IMG/VR virus record: IMGVR_UViG_2529293249_000010
Reading direction: 5' to 3' (one strand)
Source of the DNA: a virus
Lineage: Duplodnaviria; Heunggongvirae; Uroviricota; Caudoviricetes
Length of the DNA: 7,983 bases
The translations under genes and the position numbers were made by a program. A model generated the notes under the pieces. That model did not search any database. It worked only from the letters and a program-made list of their open reading frames with translations, and had not been told where the DNA came from. Below, piece after piece: positions 1 to 7,983 of this stretch (positions are counted from its first letter, which is position 1; every line of letters begins with the position of its first letter).

Positions 1-438
1 TCAAACGTCGCCAATCGCAGGAAAGACGTCTCTTTCAAGAGAGCGCCAGATATCTTCCGCATAGTCCTCTGTCACACTGGCTTTCTTCACATTCCACCAA
101 CGTTCAGCTACGAGTTGGAAAGTGTTGGTTTTGGCTTCCAGCGAACTGCGCAATTGTTCTTGCTGATGTTCCTGCGGATCGATCTGTTTAGCCAGTAGTG
201 AGCGGGACTCTGCACGGTAGTTTCTGGCATCGGCAAGGGTAACTGACGGGTAGGAGCCTATGCTCTTCTTTGCTCGTTTCTTGGTGACAGGGCGAATGTA
301 GCGAAACTGCCAGATTTTACTCCCGCTGGATTTAATGAGTAGCTCAAGGCCATCGCCATCATAGAGAACGTAGTCCGCCTCCTTGGGTTTGGCTGATTCT
401 ATTTCTTTAACGGATAGAGGTTTGGTTTGTCTTGCCAT
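1..438 (-). CDS. int: P4-type tyrosine integrase, N-terminal 145 aa only (gene continues beyond the window start)
   Basis: ORF open to the window edge, ATG at 438-436. N-terminus (LSVKEIESAKPKEADYVLYDGDGLELLIKSSGSKIWQFRY...SIGSYPSVTLADAR) has the signature of the arm-binding domain of P4/IntB-family integrases. Catalytic domain not visible in the window. Confidence 0.88.
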   Translation of the reverse strand: MARQTKPLSVKEIESAKPKEADYVLYDGDGLELLIKSSGSKIWQFRYIRPVTKKRAKKSIGSYPSVTLADARNYRAESRSLLAKQIDPQEHQQEQLRSSLEAKTNTFQLVAERWWNVKKASVTEDYAEDIWRSLERDVFPAIGDV

Positions 439-456
439 TGCCGGGTTTCCATAGTT

Positions 457-510
457 TTAGGCACCTCAAAAAACAATAAAGCTTTATGAGGTGCCTAACA
501 AGGTGCCTAA
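457..510 (-). promoter_or_regulatory. Candidate int promoter overlapped by a perfect 12-bp inverted repeat plus a third direct copy; possible Int operator / att-arm sites
   Basis: TTAGGCACCTCA (457-468) and its exact reverse complement TGAGGTGCCTAA (487-498) are separated by an 18-bp A/T-rich spacer; a third copy AGGTGCCTAA lies at 501-510. On the minus strand TTGTTA (496-501) - 17 bp - TATTGT (473-478) gives a sigma70-like promoter about 30 nt upstream of the int ATG. P4 int is reported to be autoregulated. Confidence 0.45.
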
Positions 511-563
511 AAGGATCGGATTTAATTAGTTTTCTTCGGACTTCGCGGGACAAATTGAGGGCA

Positions 564-597
564 CAAAAAAGCCCGCAGGGCTTGCGCCGTGCGGGCT
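564..597 (-). terminator. Putative rho-independent terminator (minus-strand orientation) between crr and int
   Basis: Stem AGCCCGCA (570-577) / TGCGGGCT (590-597) with a 12-nt loop; plus-strand A6 (565-570) gives a U-run immediately 3' of the stem on the minus-strand transcript. Confidence 0.4.
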
Positions 598-798
598 CTT
601 AGGACTTCATCGGATGACTCTGGTAATCACCGATGGAGAATTTTGGTGGGCTGGCGGAGTTTGAATAAATATTATATTGCTTTGATTTTTAACGATTTTG
701 TTTAATTCAGTTTTTGTGCGTATACCTAATTGTATACCAATGGCTGTAAGTTAATGTGAAATTAAAGCGCATTTTTACTTGGATTGATGCTATATCGT

Positions 799-1105
799 AC
801 AGGAAAAAAATTTTTTTTCGAAAGAACTGTTCACACTGTTCACCTTTCTTTTTTCTCCTTTTATTTCAGTATGATAGGTGGTGAATAATGGGTGAAGGGT
901 GAACATTCGATTCTTCACCTCCGGCATTCTGCTGGTGTGACTCATACCGGTGATTAATCCCCCGTACTGAAAATCACACAGGGAGAAAAAAGTTTTTTTT
1001 GATTTGATTGTTCACACTGTTCACCTTTCGTTTTTCTCTTTTAATTTCAGTGTGATAACGGGTGAATATACGGTGAAGGGTGAACAGTGGATTGTTCACC
1101 TTCGG
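799..1105. repeat. crr: crr (cis replication region): two ~125-bp direct repeats (about 799-924 and 978-1105, period ~181 bp), each with alpha-binding type-I iterons
   Basis: Near-identical units. Iterons TGTTCACA/TGTTCACC at 828-835, 837-844 and 1009-1016, 1018-1025; inverted GGTGAA(CA) copies at 881-905 and 1062-1087; TTCTTCACC at 911-919 and TGTTCACC at 1093-1100. Each unit is preceded by an A/T homopolymer run. The same octamer recurs in the ori cluster at 5834-5938. Confidence 0.85.
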
Positions 1106-1118
1106 GGGATTCAGGGAT

Positions 1119-1144
1119 AAAAAAAAGACCGGCAGATGCCGGTC
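1119..1144 (-). terminator. Rho-independent terminator of the left (alpha) operon
   Basis: Stem GACCGGC (1127-1133) / GCCGGTC (1138-1144), loop AGAT, followed on the minus-strand transcript by U8 (plus-strand A8 at 1119-1126); 17 nt downstream of the alpha stop codon (1163-1161). Confidence 0.6.
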
Positions 1145-1160
1145 AGATGAGTCATGAGGG

Positions 1161-3494
1161 TCAGGTTGTCGCAGGGTCGTCACATTTTGGCAGCCAGTCG
1201 CCGTAGCTTTCCTCTTTCAGCGTCAGGTTGGTCTGTATCCCCTGTTTGGTATGGCGCTTCTCGTAATTCAGTCCGTATTCCTTCAGCATCACCGGCAGCC
1301 CCAACCCGAACATTTTCAGACTGAGTACATTCCGGTAGCCGTTTGCCTCCATGTAGGCCAGATAGGCGTGATAGAGGTATTTACGGTAATTACGCGGGAT
1401 GATACTGGCGTTCCCCATATACATGCCGCTGGTCTGCGGCAGGGTTTCCAGATAGCCGATAAAATCAAACGTCGGGTCGGCATCCCGTTTGATGTTCAGC
1501 GCCTCGTCTGAGTTCTGCTGGGACTGAAGCAGTGACCGGGCGAGCATCGGGTCGCTGAATTTCTGCATCAGGTGACGCACGATGACCGCCAGCTCGCGGG
1601 TGATTTTGTCCTTAAGCTGCGGGTCGCGCTCCTGCGGGGCTATCTGTTCCGGGAAGTGAATAATCACCCGCCGGCGTGACACGCCGCCGCTGCGGTCGGT
1701 GAAGCGCATCGGGTTATTGTTCACGGCCAGAATTACCGCCGGGATATGCGTGGAGTATGCATCCCGGTATTTCGGGTCAACGGACACCGCATCGCCGCCG
1801 GTGATGGCCTTGAGTCCGGCACCGTCGCCGCTCCATTTTTCCTGGTCCGGCAGGCGTATCAGTGAGAAGCCAGTTAACGCGGCACGTTCACGCGGGGATT
1901 CCAGCGTCTCAATGGTGGCCGACGTGGCGTTATCCTCCCCGGCCAGCAGGGTGGCTATTTCGGCCATGATACTTTTGCCGCTGCCGCCGGGACCGGTCAC
2001 CTCCAGAAAGAGCTGCCAGTCGTAGCGGTTTGCCAGCACCATAAACAGTGCGGCCAGAATTACGTCGCGTTTTTCCGCACGACCACCGGCAGCACGGTCA
2101 AGCCAGCGCCAGAACGCGGGGGCGTGGGTTTCCAGCGTTTCCCCTTCCACCGGCGGGGTGAAATCCACATCGCACAGGGTACGCATCCAGTGTGACGGAC
2201 TGTGCGGGTGGAACGTGCCGTTCTGCGTGTCGAGCACGCCGTTACGAAAGCCAATCAGGCGGCGGGAGGGGGCTTCCTGCTGCGGAATAATCAGCTTCAG
2301 GGTGTCCACCACGGAGGCCACCTTCCCGGAGGAGAACGGCGCACGCAGACGCTGAAACAGCCCGGCCACATCCCGGGCAAAGTCCTGTGGCGGCAGCACC
2401 TTCCAGACACCATTTTCATAGCGGGACAGAAGCTGGCCGTTGGCATCGACCGCGAGCGCCTCGCCGTAATGCTCATAGATACGCATGGCCTTTTCGCTGG
2501 TACTCATGGCGGAAAACTCTGCTTCGCTCATGGTGTCGAACGGGCTTTCAGCCGGTGGCCGGATGGCATCATAAATGGCCTTACGGGTGGCCTCCCCGCC
2601 GTACTGCGTGAAGGCATCATTCCAGTCACCGAAGACCGGCGGCAGGGCAACAACACCTTCACACGCATCTGCGGCTGCGGCGGCTTTTTTCTGGCCGTCA
2701 CCGCTGAGGTCACGGTCTGCGGCAAGGACAATCTGACAGGCCGGATGCTTCTGCCGGGCAAGGCTGGCCAGAGAAAGGAGGTTCACGGAAGAAAGCGCCA
2801 CCATCACCGTTTCACCGGTCAGGTGATGTACGGTAAGTGCGGTCGCGTATCCCTCCGCTATCCACAGACGTTTTCCGGCCTGATTCTGTCCTTCAAGGGT
2901 GTGACAGGTGCCCCTGACCTGTCCGCCTTTCAGGGTGCGCTTACGGCCGTCAGCACTGATTAACTGAAGGTTAACCAGTTCGCCGCTGTCGTCATACAGT
3001 GGCACCACAAGGTCACCGGCACGCCAGCTCACGCCACCGGCTCTGTGTGTGCCGGTCAGCATCCGGCATTCCCGGCCGGGAAAGCCCTTGCGGGTCAGGT
3101 AGGCGTTACCGGTTCCGGGACGGGTTTTTGCCATCAGGGTTTGTGCCAGTGCGGCGGCGTTCTTCCGGGCAGCGTCTGTTTCAGCACCGGCGGCGGCCGT
3201 CACTGCCGGGTCAGCCGGGGGCAGGCTGCCGGTCACGGCAGCCACCTTTGCGGCCGCGTCGGACGGAGAGACACCAAACACCTTTTCAACCAGTTTCAGG
3301 CCGTCACCGGCACCACACTGATTGCAGTACCAGGTGCCGCGCCCCTCCCTGTCATCAAAACGGAAGCGGTCACTCCCGCCACAGACCGGACAGGGCTGAT
3401 GACGGTTTTTCAGCACCTGAATCCCCAGCGCCGGGAGAATACGCGGCCAGTGGCCGAGCGCATGGCTGACGGTGGCGGTTACGTTCATTTTCAT
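1161..3494 (-). CDS. alpha: Alpha: bifunctional DNA primase / helicase with C-terminal origin-binding domain (777 aa)
   Basis: 777-aa ORF, ATG at 3494 with GAAGGAG Shine-Dalgarno 8 nt upstream. N-terminal zinc ribbon CPVCGG...YCNQCG (residues 35-60); primase EGYATA motif (residues 214-219, nt 2838-2855); Walker A GPGGSGKS (nt 1971-1994). The iterons it should bind are present at crr and ori. Confidence 0.95.
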   Translation of the reverse strand: MKMNVTATVSHALGHWPRILPALGIQVLKNRHQPCPVCGGSDRFRFDDREGRGTWYCNQCGAGDGLKLVEKVFGVSPSDAAAKVAAVTGSLPPADPAVTAAAGAETDAARKNAAALAQTLMAKTRPGTGNAYLTRKGFPGRECRMLTGTHRAGGVSWRAGDLVVPLYDDSGELVNLQLISADGRKRTLKGGQVRGTCHTLEGQNQAGKRLWIAEGYATALTVHHLTGETVMVALSSVNLLSLASLARQKHPACQIVLAADRDLSGDGQKKAAAAADACEGVVALPPVFGDWNDAFTQYGGEATRKAIYDAIRPPAESPFDTMSEAEFSAMSTSEKAMRIYEHYGEALAVDANGQLLSRYENGVWKVLPPQDFARDVAGLFQRLRAPFSSGKVASVVDTLKLIIPQQEAPSRRLIGFRNGVLDTQNGTFHPHSPSHWMRTLCDVDFTPPVEGETLETHAPAFWRWLDRAAGGRAEKRDVILAALFMVLANRYDWQLFLEVTGPGGSGKSIMAEIATLLAGEDNATSATIETLESPRERAALTGFSLIRLPDQEKWSGDGAGLKAITGGDAVSVDPKYRDAYSTHIPAVILAVNNNPMRFTDRSGGVSRRRVIIHFPEQIAPQERDPQLKDKITRELAVIVRHLMQKFSDPMLARSLLQSQQNSDEALNIKRDADPTFDFIGYLETLPQTSGMYMGNASIIPRNYRKYLYHAYLAYMEANGYRNVLSLKMFGLGLPVMLKEYGLNYEKRHTKQGIQTNLTLKEESYGDWLPKCDDPATT

Positions 3495-3508
3495 GGTGTT
3501 GTTCTCCT

Positions 3509-3829
3509 TCAGTGCAGTACCGGCGCTTTTATGTGACGGGCACAGAGTTCATCCATCACAACCAGCCCGAGAAAGGACAGCGACGGCGCGGCCTTCAGGG
3601 GGCCGGATTCCATTAAATCTTCCAGCAGGGCACAGGCTATCTGACGCCCTTTTTCCTCACCGTGCTGGCGCAGATAAAAGCCTTCCAGCTCAGCGGCGAT
3701 GGCCGCCTCCAGTGATTCAAGGGTGAGATGCGGGTAGCGGTGCTGACGTTCGCACACGGTCAGCCAGGCACAGGCGACAGCGCGACGGTAAAGGGCTGCG
3801 CGTAAGACGGGCGGTAAGGGGGTTTTCAT
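3509..3829 (-). CDS. 106-aa conserved hypothetical protein of the left operon (position and length of P4 orf106); function unknown
   Basis: ATG at 3829 with GGAGG Shine-Dalgarno 7 nt upstream; TGA stop at 3511-3509 sits inside the alpha ribosome-binding site, 14 nt before the alpha ATG. No motif I can recognise. Confidence 0.75.
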
Positions 3830-3896
3830 TTGCTTTCCTCCCTGTGACAGATGACTGCATTCCGTGCCGGTTGCATTAACTGATAAGGCATATCTG

Positions 3897-3936
3897 CGTC
3901 TCCTGAAGACGTGCGTATCCCTGCGCGAATACGCAC
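3897..3936. other. Two adjacent hairpins in the 135-bp orf151-orf106 spacer (possible attenuator, processing site or antisense terminator)
   Basis: CGTCT (3897-3901) / AGACG (3907-3911) with a 5-nt loop; GTGCGTAT (3911-3918) / ATACGCAC (3929-3936) with a 10-nt loop. On the plus strand the second stem is followed by ATTTAATTTTT (3937-3947). This is the only sizeable non-coding gap in the otherwise coupled left operon. Confidence 0.4.
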
Positions 3937-3964
3937 ATTTAATTTTTCGGGTGTCGTTTTTTAA

Positions 3965-4420
3965 TTACAGATAATTGCGGTAACTGTTATCCGGGGTGAT
4001 TTCCGGGTCAGGCTCCGTGCGGGGAATTTCCCGCCATTCCCGCGCCACCGGTGCCGCCCGGCTGACCGGAACAGGGTCCTGCGGGTAAATATCCAGATAT
4101 TTCTCCCGCCATTTCTGTAATTCCGGGTCTCCGGCCATTTCTTTCAGTACCGCATGCCGGTTTACGGGGCTGCGTTTGAACAGGTCAGGACGGTCACAGG
4201 TAAATTCCCGCAGAAAACGCCCCAGCGGGATGTCTGTGGTGCGCCCGTCGGCGAGGATACGCACAAGGATACTGAATTTACGGCGGTACGGGTTCCAGAC
4301 AATTTCCGGGCAGCGGTACGGCATTTCCCACGGAATACCGTCTTCCAGAATGCCGACCACGGCCACATCGGGAAAACCGGCAGAACGGTAAATCTCACCG
4401 GGCTGGGGAAAATCAAACAT
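3965..4420 (-). CDS. 151-aa conserved hypothetical protein of the left operon (position and length of P4 orf151); function unknown
   Basis: ATG at 4420-4418; the upstream eps stop TGA (4415-4413) lies 2 nt inside this gene (ATGTTTGA), suggesting translational coupling. TAA stop at 3967-3965. Confidence 0.82.
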   Translation of the reverse strand: MFDFPQPGEIYRSAGFPDVAVVGILEDGIPWEMPYRCPEIVWNPYRRKFSILVRILADGRTTDIPLGRFLREFTCDRPDLFKRSPVNRHAVLKEMAGDPELQKWREKYLDIYPQDPVPVSRAAPVAREWREIPRTEPDPEITPDNSYRNYL

Positions 4421-4700
4421 GCGTCCTGTCTCCCCGGTCTTTCTGCTGGGCGAGAAAATCGCGGCACAGGCCTTTGGCTTTCAGCTCATTCAGCACAAAA
4501 TCAATATCTTCATTCAGGTAGCTGAAAATATGCGGAATGTAGAGCTGATGGAGGCCGGAGAGTTCACGGTGAATCAAATCACCCCCAACAAACTGGGATA
4601 CGGCGCTGGCGCGGTTGAGCTTATGGTAAGCCTCAATGCTGAGGTGTTCACGGGCGTCATGACGCGCTGAGACGGTCTGAGGGGCTTTTTTATTACGCAC
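4413..4700 (-). CDS. eps: Epsilon-like protein (95 aa, GTG start): candidate anti-repressor that derepresses the P2-type helper prophage
   Basis: No in-frame ATG exists downstream of the kil stop. GTG at 4700-4698 is preceded by GGAGG with a 6-nt spacer and gives exactly 95 codons; the kil stop TAA (4695-4693) lies 2 nt inside (GTGCGTAA). The coding-like region starts here, while the upstream part of the same frame is Cys/Pro/Trp-rich. Assignment to eps rests on position and recalled length. Confidence 0.68.
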
Positions 4701-4890
4701 GGGACACCTCCACCACCGGCAGACGGGCAGCAAGGGAGAGCACATAGTCACGGACAAGGGAACGGCGGGCGCTGCGTTCATCACCGGCGACGGTGCGAAG
4801 CATACAGATACGGGGATGACGGTCTGCGCGACGGACAGCCGCAAACACAAAGACAAATTCAGGGTGTGAGGGGGTAAGGGTCGTAGCCAT
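4693..4890 (-). CDS. kil: Kil (65 aa), first translated gene downstream of PLE; nested in-frame within eta
   Basis: ATG at 4890-4888 preceded by GGAGG (plus-strand CCTCC 4898-4902) with a 7-nt spacer; 65 codons; TAA at 4695-4693. The seqC element of the immunity leader (4899-4945) directly abuts this ribosome-binding site. Confidence 0.75.
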
Positions 4891-5292
4891 AAGGCAACCT
4901 CCGATAACAGCGTAAATGACGCTATCGCCGGAGTTTCCACGCTCGATGGCGATAGCCCAGACGGGGGTGGAAATACCGGCGTTATCGGAAACCGGCCAGC
5001 CCGGAGGCTGCCCCGCCTGAGCTACCATTGACTCTGCGGTATAATGAGCGGACGCGGGCAGAATGCACGGAGTGCCATTTGCTCGACTGACCACACACCA
5101 CACCATAATCTGGCGCTCTGTGGCGTTGATTGCGACACAAAAAAAGACGCATGGCGCGTCATATGTCGCCGATAACATACTCGGGTTTCCACGCCCGGCT
5201 GCCGATTTTGCGGCAGCGGAAAAACTATATCCGCAAATGCCGGAAAAAGGCAAGCCAGAAAAAGGAAGTTTTTGCAGAACAGGCATCATCAT
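4693..5292 (-). CDS. eta: Eta (about 197-199 aa), long ORF beginning upstream of PLE and ending as kil; translated from PLL transcripts
   Basis: Same frame as kil, open back to ATGATGATG (5292-5284), giving 199/198/197 aa. The vis stop TGA (5291-5289) is embedded in the triple ATG. The frame continues upstream to an ATG at 5337 (214 aa) that lies inside vis. It runs through the whole immunity leader, so it can only be translated from PLL read-through RNA. Confidence 0.55.
4899..4945 (-). promoter_or_regulatory. seqC: target of CI RNA in the left-operon leader, abutting the kil ribosome-binding site
   Basis: The transcript-strand sequence carries GCGUGGAAAC...GUUAUCGG, as does seqA; both blocks are complementary to the seqB region (4966-4988). 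Position is immediately 5' of the kil Shine-Dalgarno. Confidence 0.5.
4950..5020 (-). ncRNA. cI: CI immunity RNA (seqB region); boundaries approximate
   Basis: The plus strand at 4966-4988 reads GTGGAAATACCGGCGTTATCGG, so the minus-strand transcript carries CCGAUAAC...UUUCCAC, complementary to the GUGGAAAC and GUUAUCGG blocks of seqA and seqC. The region is GC-rich with several internal inverted repeats (for example CCGG...CCGG). Exact processed ends cannot be read from sequence. Confidence 0.5.
5165..5204 (-). promoter_or_regulatory. seqA: CI RNA target at about +13 to +52 of the PLE transcript
   Basis: The transcript-strand sequence CGGCAGCCGGGCGUGGAAACCCGAGUAUGUUAUCGGCGAC shares the GUGGAAAC and GUUAUCGG blocks with seqC. 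Confidence 0.5.
5224..5253 (-). promoter_or_regulatory. PLE, sigma70-type promoter of the left operon / immunity transcript
   Basis: On the minus strand TTGCCT (5253-5248) - 18-bp spacer - TATAGT (5229-5224); predicted start near 5217, just upstream of seqA and about 35 bp downstream of the vis stop. Confidence 0.5.
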
Positions 5293-5555
5293 GCGTCGTA
5301 CCCCCGTTTGCGTCCGGCAATGCGCCCGGCCATCCATGCGGTGACTTCAGAGTGCAGCCAGGCCACATTTTTACCGCCAAGACTCACCTGCGGCGGAAAT
5401 TCCCCCTTACGGATGAGTTCGTAGATGGTCGAGCGTGACAGGCCGCACAGGTGCATCACTTCCGGCAGACGTAAAAAACGCTCCTGCGTGATGTCCGGCA
5501 GCGGCATCAGTGGCGTCACAGGGGCGGGAGACGGGGAAGAAAAAACAGCTTGCAT
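5289..5555 (-). CDS. vis: Vis: AlpA/Vis-family helix-turn-helix regulator and excision factor (88 aa)
   Basis: ATG at 5555-5553 with GAGG 7 nt upstream. Core motif [49 protein letters not shown] is typical of the AlpA/Vis/Xis-like family. It is the first gene after PLL. An internal ATG at codon 17 is an alternative start. Confidence 0.85.
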
Positions 5556-5599
5556 CGGGCTACCTCGTTAATGTCCATACAGCACCGGATAAGTCCGTC

Positions 5600-5680
5600 C
5601 GGCTTCGGGTAGCGCTTTATTTTGTGAATATTTTCGGCAGACGCAACAGGGGGGATTTGTTCCGGCAGTCTTACAATGGC
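5600..5680 (-). promoter_or_regulatory. PLL late promoter region with a Delta/Ogr-type activator box TGT-N12-ACA
   Basis: Dyad TGTTCCGGCAGTCTTACA at 5658-5675, about 100 bp upstream of the vis ATG; a -55 placement would put the start near 5611. The -10 element is poor (AAAATA or TATTCA-like), as expected for an activator-dependent promoter. Confidence 0.42.
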
Positions 5681-5832
5681 TGTGTATTTTTTGTACATCA
5701 GCGCCAGATAGCTTTAAAACGCTCTGGAAGGAGCTGGAAAAAATTATAGTGAAATACAAATTGTTTTTTCTTATTTATTTCAGTGAATTAATAAAAATAA
5801 AAAGTAATAAACAGCACAAAAAGCCCATCAAC

Positions 5833-5938
5833 GGGTGAACAGTGGTGAACAGACGGTGAACAGTCATTACTGCGATTGTTCACCCTTTAACTTACTGTAT
5901 TACTTATCTTTTTTATTAAGGTGAACAGAGGTGAACAG
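5833..5938. other. ori: ori (origin of replication): cluster of six alpha-binding iterons flanked by A/T-rich DNA
   Basis: GGTGAACAG at 5834-5842, 5844-5852, 5855-5863, 5920-5928 and 5930-5938 (spaced 10-11 bp), plus inverted TGTTCACC at 5877-5884. Strongly A/T-rich flanks at 5760-5820 and 5886-5960. Same octamer as in crr, about 4.9 kb away. Confidence 0.82.
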
Positions 5939-6016
5939 TAAAATATAAAAAAACAAACAGTAAGCCGGTTTTTCCTGCGACCTTTTCCTGGCTTGCCGGT
6001 GTGAGGATGAGTCTCC

Positions 6017-6080
6017 TGTGTCAGGGCTGGCACATCTGCAATGCGTCGTGTTGTTGTCCGGTGTACGTCACAATTTTCTC
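6017..6080 (+). promoter_or_regulatory. Psid late promoter with a Delta/Ogr-type activator box TGT-N12-ACA
   Basis: Dyad TGTGTCAGGGCTGGCACA at 6017-6034; candidate -10 CACAAT at 6069-6074; sid Shine-Dalgarno GAGGAG at 6094-6099, 6 nt before the ATG. Confidence 0.48.
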
Positions 6081-6105
6081 AACCTGAAGTGACGAGGAGC
6101 CGAAA

Positions 6106-6840
6106 ATGTCTGACAACACCATCCCTGAATATCTGCAATCCGCGCTGGCACAACTGGAAAAGGCCAGAGCCGCCCATCTTGAGAACGCCCGTCTGATGGA
6201 TGAGACCGTCACGGCCATTGAACGGGCAGAGCAGGAAAAAAATGCGCTGGCGCAGGCCGACGGAAACGACGCTGACGACTGGCGCACGGCCTTTCGTGCA
6301 GCCGGTGGTGTCCTGAGCGACGAGCTGAAACAGCGCCACATTGAGCGCGTGGCACGCCGGGAGCTGGTACAGGAATATGACAATCTGGCCGTGGTGCTGA
6401 ATTTTGAACGCGAACGCCTGAAAGGGGCGTGTGACAGCACGGCCACCGCCTACCGGAAGGCACATCATCACCTGCTGAGTCTGTATGCAGAGCATGAGCT
6501 GGAACACGCCCTGAATGAAACCTGTGAGGCGCTTGTCCGGGCAATGCATCTGAGCATTCTGGTACAGGAAAATCCGCTCGCCAACACCACCGGCCATCAG
6601 GGCTACGTCGCACCGGAAAAGGCTGTCATGCAGCAGGTGAAATCATCGCTGGAACAGAAAATTAAACAGATGCAAATCAGCCTCACCGGCGAGCCGGTTC
6701 TCCGGCTGACCGGACTGTCAGCGGCAACACTTCCTCACATGGATTATGAGGTGGCAGGCACACCGGCACAGCGCAAGGTGTGGCAGGACAAAATAGACCA
6801 GCAGGGAGCAGTGCTTAAGGCCAGAGGACTGCTGTCATGA
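6106..6840 (+). CDS. sid: Sid: external scaffolding / capsid size-determination protein (244 aa)
   Basis: 244-aa ORF with a strong Shine-Dalgarno; predicted to be highly alpha-helical and charged. Length and position (first gene of the Psid operon, upstream of delta and psu) match P4 Sid. Confidence 0.93.
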   Translation: MSDNTIPEYLQSALAQLEKARAAHLENARLMDETVTAIERAEQEKNALAQADGNDADDWRTAFRAAGGVLSDELKQRHIERVARRELVQEYDNLAVVLNFERERLKGACDSTATAYRKAHHHLLSLYAEHELEHALNETCEALVRAMHLSILVQENPLANTTGHQGYVAPEKAVMQQVKSSLEQKIKQMQISLTGEPVLRLTGLSAATLPHMDYEVAGTPAQRKVWQDKIDQQGAVLKARGLLS

Positions 6841-7337
6841 TTTACTGCCCGTCGTGTGGACATGTTGCTCACACCCGCCGCGCACATTTCATGGACGATG
6901 GCACCAAGATAATGATTGCACAGTGCCGGAATATTTATTGCTCTGCGACATTTGAAGCGAGTGAAAGCTTTTTCTCTGACAGTAAAGATTCAGGAATGGA
7001 ATACATTTCAGGCAAACAGAGATACCGCGATTCACTGACGTCAGCCTCCGGCAGTATGAAACGCCCGAAAAGAATGCTTGTTACCGGATATTGTTGTCGG
7101 AGATGTAAAGGCCTTGCACTGTCAAGAACATCGCGGCGTCTGTCTCAGGAAGTCACCGAGCGTTTTTATGTGTGCACGGATCCGGGCTGTGGTCTGGTGT
7201 TTAAAACGCTTCAGACCATCACCCGCTTCATTGTCCGCCCGGTCACGCCGGACGAACTGGCAGAACGCCTGCATGAAAAACAGGAACTGCCGCCAGTACG
7301 CTTAAAAACACAATCATATTCGCTGCGTCTGGAATGA
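6837..7337 (+). CDS. delta: Delta: late-gene transcriptional activator, tandem Ogr-type zinc-finger protein (166 aa)
   Basis: ATG overlaps the sid stop (ATGA at 6837-6840). Two Ogr-like modules, each with C-x2-C ... C-x4-C: CPSCG...CRNIYC and CRRCKG...CTDPGC. Confidence 0.93.
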   Translation: MIYCPSCGHVAHTRRAHFMDDGTKIMIAQCRNIYCSATFEASESFFSDSKDSGMEYISGKQRYRDSLTSASGSMKRPKRMLVTGYCCRRCKGLALSRTSRRLSQEVTERFYVCTDPGCGLVFKTLQTITRFIVRPVTPDELAERLHEKQELPPVRLKTQSYSLRLE

Positions 7338-7410
7338 GGGCTGCCGGTTAACCCCGGCCGTCGCCGCACACCGTATTTTTATTCTTCAGCATGATGAGAA
7401 AGAGATAACG

Positions 7411-7983
7411 ATGGAGAGCACAGCCTTACAGCAGGCCTTTGACACCTGTCAGAATAACAAAGCAGCATGGCTGCAACGCAAAAATGAGCTGGCTGCGGCC
7501 GAACAGGAATATCTGCGGCTTCTGTCCGGGGAAGGCAGAAACGTCAGTCGCCTGGACGAATTACGCAATATTATCGAAGTCAGAAAATGGCAGGTGAATC
7601 AGGCCGCCGGTCGTTATATTCGTTCGCATGAAGCCGTTCAGCACATCAGCATCCGCGACCGGCTGAATGATTTTATGCAGCAGCACGGCACAGCACTGGC
7701 GGCGGCACTGGCACCGGAGCTGATGGGATACAGTGAGCTGACGGCCATTGCCCGAAACTGTGCCATACAGCGTGCCACAGATGCCCTGCGTGAAGCCCTT
7801 CTGTCCTGGCTTGCGAAGGGGGAAAAAATTAATTATTCCGCACAGGATAGTGACATTTTAACGACCATCGGATTCAGGCCTGACGCGGCTTCGGTGGATG
7901 ACAGCCGTGAAAAATTCACCCCTGCGCAGAACATGATTTTTTCGCGTAAAAGTGCGCAACTGGAATCACATCAGTCTGTGTAA
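7411..7983 (+). CDS. psu: Psu: polarity suppression protein (Rho antagonist / capsid decoration), 190 aa
   Basis: 190-aa ORF with a purine-rich ribosome-binding site (AAGAGA, 7400-7405); TAA stop is the last three bases of the window. Length and position after delta match P4 Psu. Confidence 0.92.
   Translation: MESTALQQAFDTCQNNKAAWLQRKNELAAAEQEYLRLLSGEGRNVSRLDELRNIIEVRKWQVNQAAGRYIRSHEAVQHISIRDRLNDFMQQHGTALAAALAPELMGYSELTAIARNCAIQRATDALREALLSWLAKGEKINYSAQDSDILTTIGFRPDAASVDDSREKFTPAQNMIFSRKSAQLESHQSV

Follow-up and report, generated by a model that had tools for sequence, protein, structure and literature searches.

The probable vis-sid control region of a P4-like satellite: late promoters, replication origin and a swapped repeat cassette

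The P4 control region and its counterpart in the window

In satellite phage P4, the Alpha protein binds iterons at ori and at crr and melts the neighboring A/T-rich DNA, which leads to bidirectional theta replication. Late transcription relies on Ogr or Delta, which bind to dyads and recruit RNA polymerase; PLL serves vis and, by read-through, the replication operon, while Psid serves sid, delta and psu. Vis acts on both promoters, as a repressor of PLL and an enhancer of Psid. Julien and Calendar, in 1995, reportedly observed Delta footprints at -55 in all six late promoters of P2 and P4, and a second site at -18 in Psid. That the origin lies between PLL and Psid is already known from the textbook P4 map and from the GenBank annotation, and the anatomy described below adds nothing new in this respect.

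The window, by which we mean the whole stretch of 7,983 nucleotides that was analyzed, is a P4-like satellite and is 97.3% identical to phage P4 (X51522) over positions 805-7983. Around the region of interest the identity is 93.5% over 5500-6200, with window position 5500 corresponding to P4 position 8975. Of 5426 complete E. coli genomes, 1006 have this region, in every case on the chromosome. The genes vis, sid, delta, psu, cnr and alpha each differ from their P4 counterparts by 0-7 residues and are arranged as follows.

5289-5555, minus strand: vis (orf88), a reading frame of 88 residues that is one residue off P4 ORF88 (Pfam Phage_AlpA, E=7e-21); AlpA-family HTH excisionase/regulator and first gene of the PLL transcript
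6106-6840, plus strand: sid, a reading frame three residues off P4; late gene driven by Psid
6837-7337, plus strand: delta, a reading frame three residues off P4 with two Ogr_Delta zinc-finger stretches (E=6e-22); late gene driven by Psid
from 7411: psu, present in the window
3509-3829: cnr, without differences from P4
1161-3494, minus strand: alpha, 777 residues, seven of them off P4 alpha; Pfam primase zinc ribbon, Toprim, D5_N and Pox_D5

Delta, with its two Ogr_Delta stretches, provides a cis-encoded activator of the Ogr/Delta family, and the alpha product, by its domains and its closeness to P4 alpha, is a primase-helicase and origin-binding initiator. As judged from these sequence comparisons, we consider it very likely that the interval 5556-6105 corresponds to the control region that P4-type satellites typically have between vis and sid, in which three modules are juxtaposed.

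Similarity to P4 begins only at position 805, at crr. In this left-hand part of the window (1-826), bases 1-438 code for the N-terminal part of a tyrosine integrase with its Arm-DNA-binding domain; at the DNA level this integrase has no relationship to P4 int, and it is shared with Klebsiella prophages. The junction between int and crr is contiguous in only four E. coli genomes. No tRNA gene was found in the window. Downstream of vis, the P4 immunity RNA set was detected with Rfam at 4945-5230 on the minus strand, comprising the C4 antisense RNA (4945-5032), isrK (5140-5217) and the c4-a1b1 target (5178-5230). Patches of lowered identity to P4 at 4871-5209 suggest a variant immunity specificity. 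Note that within the vis-sid intergenic region, 5556-6105, Rfam gave no match.

For a comparison beyond the immediate relatives of P4, a profile of Sid homologs was used and retrieved loci of Klebsiella, Raoultella, Citrobacter, Enterobacter, Mangrovibacter and other Enterobacteriaceae, 21 in all, whose Sid sequences are 56-66% identical. The alignment referred to below as A3 comprises 16 elements, namely the window, P4, locus L003 and those 13 distant loci whose flanking sequence was long enough. In these 13 distant loci vis is found divergently oriented upstream of sid, with a gap of 538-560 bp, and in the near-identical L003 the gap is 552 bp.

Putative activator dyads and predicted late promoters

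The sequence features considered for late transcription are the following.

5658-5675: PLL dyad of the Ogr/Delta type (TGTTCCGGCAGTCTTACA), an exact TGT-N12-ACA; putative activator site
6017-6034: Psid Ogr/Delta dyad at about -55 from the predicted start (TGTGTCAGGGCTGGCACA), an exact TGT-N12-ACA; putative activator site
6055-6072: second Psid dyad (TGTCCGGTGTACGTCACA), likewise an exact TGT-N12-ACA, over the -10 region of Psid, with its center at about -17.5 from the predicted start
5610-5646, minus strand: predicted PLL core, with -35-like TTGCGT at 5646-5641, -10-like CAAAAT at 5624-5619 and a start near 5610-5612
6069-6082, plus strand: predicted Psid core, with -10 CACAAT at 6069-6074 and a start near 6081-6082

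TGT-N12-ACA has been cited as the consensus of Ogr-dependent late promoters (PMC3931495). A first-pass annotation of this DNA had assigned such a box to 5658-5675, upstream of vis, and another to 6017-6034, upstream of sid, and at both positions the match is indeed exact. The names it gave to the parts (vis, sid, Delta, Alpha, ori, PLL and Psid) are borne out by the alignment to P4, by the annotated rep_origin and by the encoded genes. Its parts list was sound for these two dyads and the iterons, but it overlooked the third dyad at 6055-6072, the inverted iteron and the cassette module. The centers of the first two dyads are 359 bp apart, and the third follows the second at a distance of 38 bp. 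With its center at -17.5, this third dyad presumably corresponds to the second Delta site at -18 of Psid mentioned above.

The pattern is short, and in the window as a whole its excess is modest, with five matches versus 1.6 expected, a number that was reached in 3 of 200 shuffles and is weak evidence when taken alone. Three of the five, however, fall within the 550 bp between vis and sid, where 0.16 would be expected (P = 0.0007 for three or more), and it is this concentration that leads us to conclude, in spite of the loose pattern, that these three are unlikely to be due to chance. The two others do seem to be chance matches and were discarded as sites: that at 1167 belongs to the C-terminal codons of alpha, and that at 3952 is missing from P4 and from the distant relatives. 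It might be argued that the intergenic dyads, too, are no activator sites and merely fit a loose pattern of six bases, all the more as P2 promoters do without an exact TGT-N12-ACA; we give this reading next to no credence, as in P4 the same three are the only intergenic matches, and all 20 related loci for which upstream sequence was available have the exact Psid dyad at a fixed distance from the sid ATG (-76.5 to -82.5). The PLL dyad of P4 and L003 retains its TGT/ACA half-sites while the spacer, with one or two changes, is free to vary, and the predicted geometry is the same as in the mapped P2 promoters.

The starts of the two late promoters were predicted by setting the center of the dyad at -55.5, the offset of the mapped P2 promoters PO, PP and PV, whose site centers lie at about -55.5 as computed from AF063097. 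In this record, PP starts at 3016 on the minus strand and PO at 3127 on the plus strand, with a common site at 3057-3087; PV has its site at 10239-10266 and starts at 10308, and PF has its site at 17555-17583 and starts at 17626-17628. For the window, PLL is predicted to start at about 5611 on the minus strand and Psid at about 6081 on the plus strand, some 470 bp apart. Each predicted start is found 7 nt past a -10-like hexamer, both hexamers are embedded in TCACAA, and their distance to the dyad is that of the mapped P2 promoters. A simple scan of 5450-6200 revealed no consensus pair of sigma-70 -35 and -10 elements, as is to be expected at PLL and Psid if they are activator-dependent. Both promoters would be controlled by a zinc-finger protein of the Ogr/Delta family as activator, either Ogr of the helper or the satellite's own Delta.

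Besides its role as a recombination directionality factor, Vis acts as a transcription regulator away from att (PMC7498355). A possible Vis box, the motif GGCTT that is found both downstream of PLL and upstream of Psid, was dismissed, as there are no more copies of it in the window or in P4, including attP. The same fate met GTGAATA in the PLL core as a site for autoregulation by Alpha, with a match of 6/8 where about 4-5 such matches per 550 bp are expected by chance. The vis leader at 5556-5611 on the minus strand (GTCCGTCCGGCTTCGGGTAGC and neighboring sequence) is near-invariant in all 16 aligned elements, more conserved than much coding sequence would suggest, and the predicted PLL transcript can begin with a short hairpin.

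Predicted replication origin and repeat cassette

Between the two late promoters, and at one remote site, the following elements were distinguished.

5834-5864, plus strand: three direct type-1 iterons GGTGAACAG, the 'ori type 1 repeats' of X51522; putative Alpha sites
5876-5884, minus strand: inverted fourth iteron (GGTGAACAA on the minus strand), X51522 9353-9360
5920-5939, plus strand: two direct type-1 iterons, X51522 9396-9413
5746-5833: left A/T-rich flank of ori, GC 13-30%; likely unwinding region
5885-5919: A/T-rich spacer between the iteron groups; third least stable 40-mer of the window
5940-5960 and 5961-6016: A-rich right flank, then a block with invariant stretches (alignment A3, columns 422-498)
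827-1100: crr, a further replication site in cis, with six type-1 iterons; aligned with P4 crr 4291-4590, where X51522 annotates more copies of the repeat
5690-5745: variable repeat cassette (GCGCCAGATAGCTTTAAAACGCTCTGGAAGGAGCTGGAAA), unrelated to the 'type 2 repeats' at the same place in P4

The iteron cluster that had been placed between the dyads at 5834-5938, with A/T-rich flanks, was recovered as six iterons at 5834-5939, and GC contents of 13% at 5750-5809 and 23% at 5900-5959 confirm the flanks. Copies of GGTGAACAG start at 5834, 5844, 5855, 5920 and 5930 on the plus strand, and the sixth, on the minus strand, carries one mismatch. The resulting order of the type-1 iterons (GTGAACAG), three direct, one inverted and two direct, occupies the same columns as the repeats of X51522, and the inverted copy forms a dyad with iteron 3. 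Over the whole window there are 12 iteron copies versus 1.6 expected, a number that none of 200 shuffles reached; ori and crr are separated by about 4.7 kb. The least stable 40-mer of the entire window is found at 5771-5810, with a dG of -38.3 versus a mean of -57.5 (sd 5.0).

The iteron layout, the meltable A/T-rich flanks, crr and a cognate alpha gene are thus all present, as in a P4-type Alpha-dependent origin (ori1), and we infer that the iterons are bound by Alpha and that replication begins at this ori. The block at 5961-6016 contains stretches that are invariant across genera and a direct repeat at 13-bp spacing, TTTTCCTG(C)GACC / TTTTCCTGGC. This block could be an enhancer site for Psid, bound by Vis or another protein, or a part of the minimal origin.

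Identity to P4 is lowest in a patch at 5670-5818, with a minimum of 47% versus about 97% elsewhere, and the core of this patch is the cassette at 5690-5745. The type 2 repeats of P4, of 10 bp each and in 10-bp phasing (TTAAAGTCA at 9180, TTAAAGCCA at 9190 and TTAAAGCAA at 9200), agree perfectly or almost perfectly with the P2 Cox box, consensus TTAAA(G/C)NC(A/C) (PMC3936717), in 9/9, 9/9 and 8/9 positions. No phased array of Cox boxes was found in the window, where only one 8/9 match, oppositely oriented, is present. P2 Cox binds upstream of PLL and derepresses the P4 prophage (PMC3936717), and the P2 record (AF063097) likewise states that Cox binds upstream of PLL.

In X51522 the three 10-bp repeats are labeled 'ori type 2 repeat' and are included in the rep_origin feature, so that 5690-5745 might be regarded as a component of the origin and not as an element of transcription control. 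This we judge quite improbable, in view of the match of the P4 repeats to Cox boxes, their phasing and the reported binding of Cox upstream of PLL. The cassette was moreover swapped while alpha (7 of 777 residues), cnr (none) and the iterons stayed the same, and it is hypervariable in relatives whose iterons are 93% identical. As it has been replaced with vis, alpha, cnr and delta essentially unchanged, the cassette should be neither an Alpha nor a Vis element. Both alleles are frequent in complete E. coli genomes, with 373 of the window type and 439 of the P4 type, and most distant elements have 10-bp-phased repeats of their own at this position, for example TTGGCCATTA, TGGCAAACGT and GTTTGCCAGC.

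A search for exact 7-mers shared between cassettes and the Cox switch regions of helper phages was uninformative, missing even the positive control, P4 and P2. With a mismatch-tolerant score this control reached z=3.4 in a set of 48 tests, in which the pairs window/ESSI2_ev239 (z=2.7) and L018/PhiR44_2 (z=2.9) are suggestive only. A cox region of the ESSI2 type was found in none of the 5426 E. coli genomes, and the link between the window and ESSI2 is therefore probably a chance result.

Taken together, the cassette data hint at a helper-specific sensing module, which is a reasonable hypothesis. We regard as rather doubtful the two more far-reaching readings, late transcription and replication coupled in cis, or a cassette that is exchangeable as a helper-sensing module, with each allele an array of operators recognized by Cox or Apl from a different P2-like helper. 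If the cassette were exchangeable in this sense, the satellite in the window would ignore P2 Cox and respond to another helper instead. The cassette is the sole part of the region with research value: if it does set which helper Cox derepresses the element, it would mark, in a simple way and at the sequence level, the helper specificity of such elements, which roughly one in five E. coli genomes carry.

Conservation, possible coupling and comparison with known systems

The degree of conservation in the 13 distant loci differs markedly between the parts of the region. Identity to the window is 93% for iterons 1-3 and 85% for iterons 5-6, and the spacer between the iterons is 82% identical without indel columns. 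The PLL core together with the vis leader (5556-5650) shows 79% identity, the right flank at 5940-5960 75% and the block at 5961-6016 56%, and at the lower end are the left A/T-rich flank with 41% and the cassette with 32%. The distance between the last iteron and the sid ATG is 161-170 bp across genera, while the spacing on the left-hand side is variable, with 25-32 indel columns.

The first Psid dyad is 74% identical in the distant loci, and the second Psid site is found in 13 of 13 as TGT-N12-AGA at the fixed offset of 38 bp. For the PLL dyad the identity is 36%, and the exact N12 spacing is confined to the P4 clade; control of PLL by the activator thus is less universal than that of Psid. 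At the position of the PLL dyad, 9 of the 13 distant loci have a palindrome of 17 bp, TGT-N11-ACA (e.g. TGTAGTGGCCCACCACA), which suggests that PLL in these elements is subject to a different or relaxed activator recognition. The N11 palindrome is found in L008, L014, L015, L017, L018, L019, L021, L023 and others (A3 columns 101-121), and the Psid dyads of these loci are strictly N12. From the conservation in the alignment it follows that the vis-sid layout is ancient and family-wide, and that activator control of Psid is its most conserved part.

A working model for the region would be as follows. At a theta-type ori, Alpha would occupy the six iterons and a further six in crr and subsequently open the adjacent A/T-rich DNA. 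PLL would be the leftward late promoter, serving vis and then, via the immunity region, the alpha operon, and Psid the rightward one for sid-delta-psu. Ogr from the helper or the element's own Delta would bind the dyads centered near -55 at PLL and Psid, with a second dyad over the core in the case of Psid. The phased-repeat cassette upstream of the PLL dyad would be, in P4, a helper Cox array that wakes the prophage, and in the window another allele of it. We assume that the modules most likely act largely independently, and that their nearness reflects a compact genome with divergent operons.

The proximity of ori to two late promoters nevertheless invites the thought of cross-talk in cis, raised in the first-pass annotation, in which divergent transcription driven by Delta or Ogr would negatively supercoil the 470 bp or so between the starts and help to melt the A/T-rich flank of ori, while Alpha on the iterons, or looping between ori and crr, would modulate the promoters. 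Both promoters fire away from ori, and the weakest duplex, 5771-5810, is situated between them, so that in a twin-domain model negative supercoiling would arise exactly where melting is needed. Analogies for an effect of this kind are oriC with gidA, the lambda ori with PR, and the twin-domain supercoiling model itself. The order of the elements and the right-hand spacing are kept across genera, but conserved order and proximity would be expected equally of a compact genome with divergent operons, the left-hand spacing varies, and the iteron-like GTGAATA in the PLL core does not exceed chance level. P4 ori works in purified, rifampicin-resistant systems without RNA polymerase, and cloned fragments of it function when alpha is provided in trans, which speaks against a coupling between origin and promoters that is obligatory. 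A link in trans between replication and late transcription is already known, as alpha is expressed from PLL in late infection and in the plasmid state. Cross-talk in cis is a speculation that the sequence data neither support nor exclude, and we hold it to be unlikely; largely independent modules are the reading that we prefer.

The closest described system is P4 itself (X51522 about 9030-9583; rep_origin 9086-9809), in which order and orientation are as in the window. The two elements do not differ in the six iterons, the spacer, the right flank or either of the Psid dyads, and the promoter on the sid side is nearly identical. The differences are found in the 55-bp cassette at 5690-5745 that takes the place of three Cox-box repeats, in the diverged left A/T-rich flank, in two substitutions in the spacer of the PLL dyad, and in a different integrase module beyond crr.

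The P2 promoters PP/PO, PV and PF depend on the Ogr/Delta family, as is predicted for PLL and Psid, and have a site about 55 bp upstream of a mapped start, whereas the starts in the window are predicted ones; the P2 sites match only TGT-N12-CCA or CTA. PP and PO are divergent like the promoters in the window, but they have one common site and starts that are 111 bp apart with nothing between them, whereas in the window each promoter has its own dyad, and the origin is located between predicted starts about 470 bp apart. At oriC with gidA and mioC, and at the lambda ori with PR, nearby transcription has been demonstrated to alter origin opening; these are functional analogies only, without a relationship to the window in sequence or protein. 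The Cox boxes of P2 and the Apl operators of 186 are tandem short repeats spaced by about one helical turn, and the cassettes of P4-like elements have the same form. Operator arrays of recombination directionality factors of this kind are bound cooperatively (PMC3936717, PMC7498355), and the repeats in the cassette of the window are less regular than those of P4 or of the Klebsiella-type elements.
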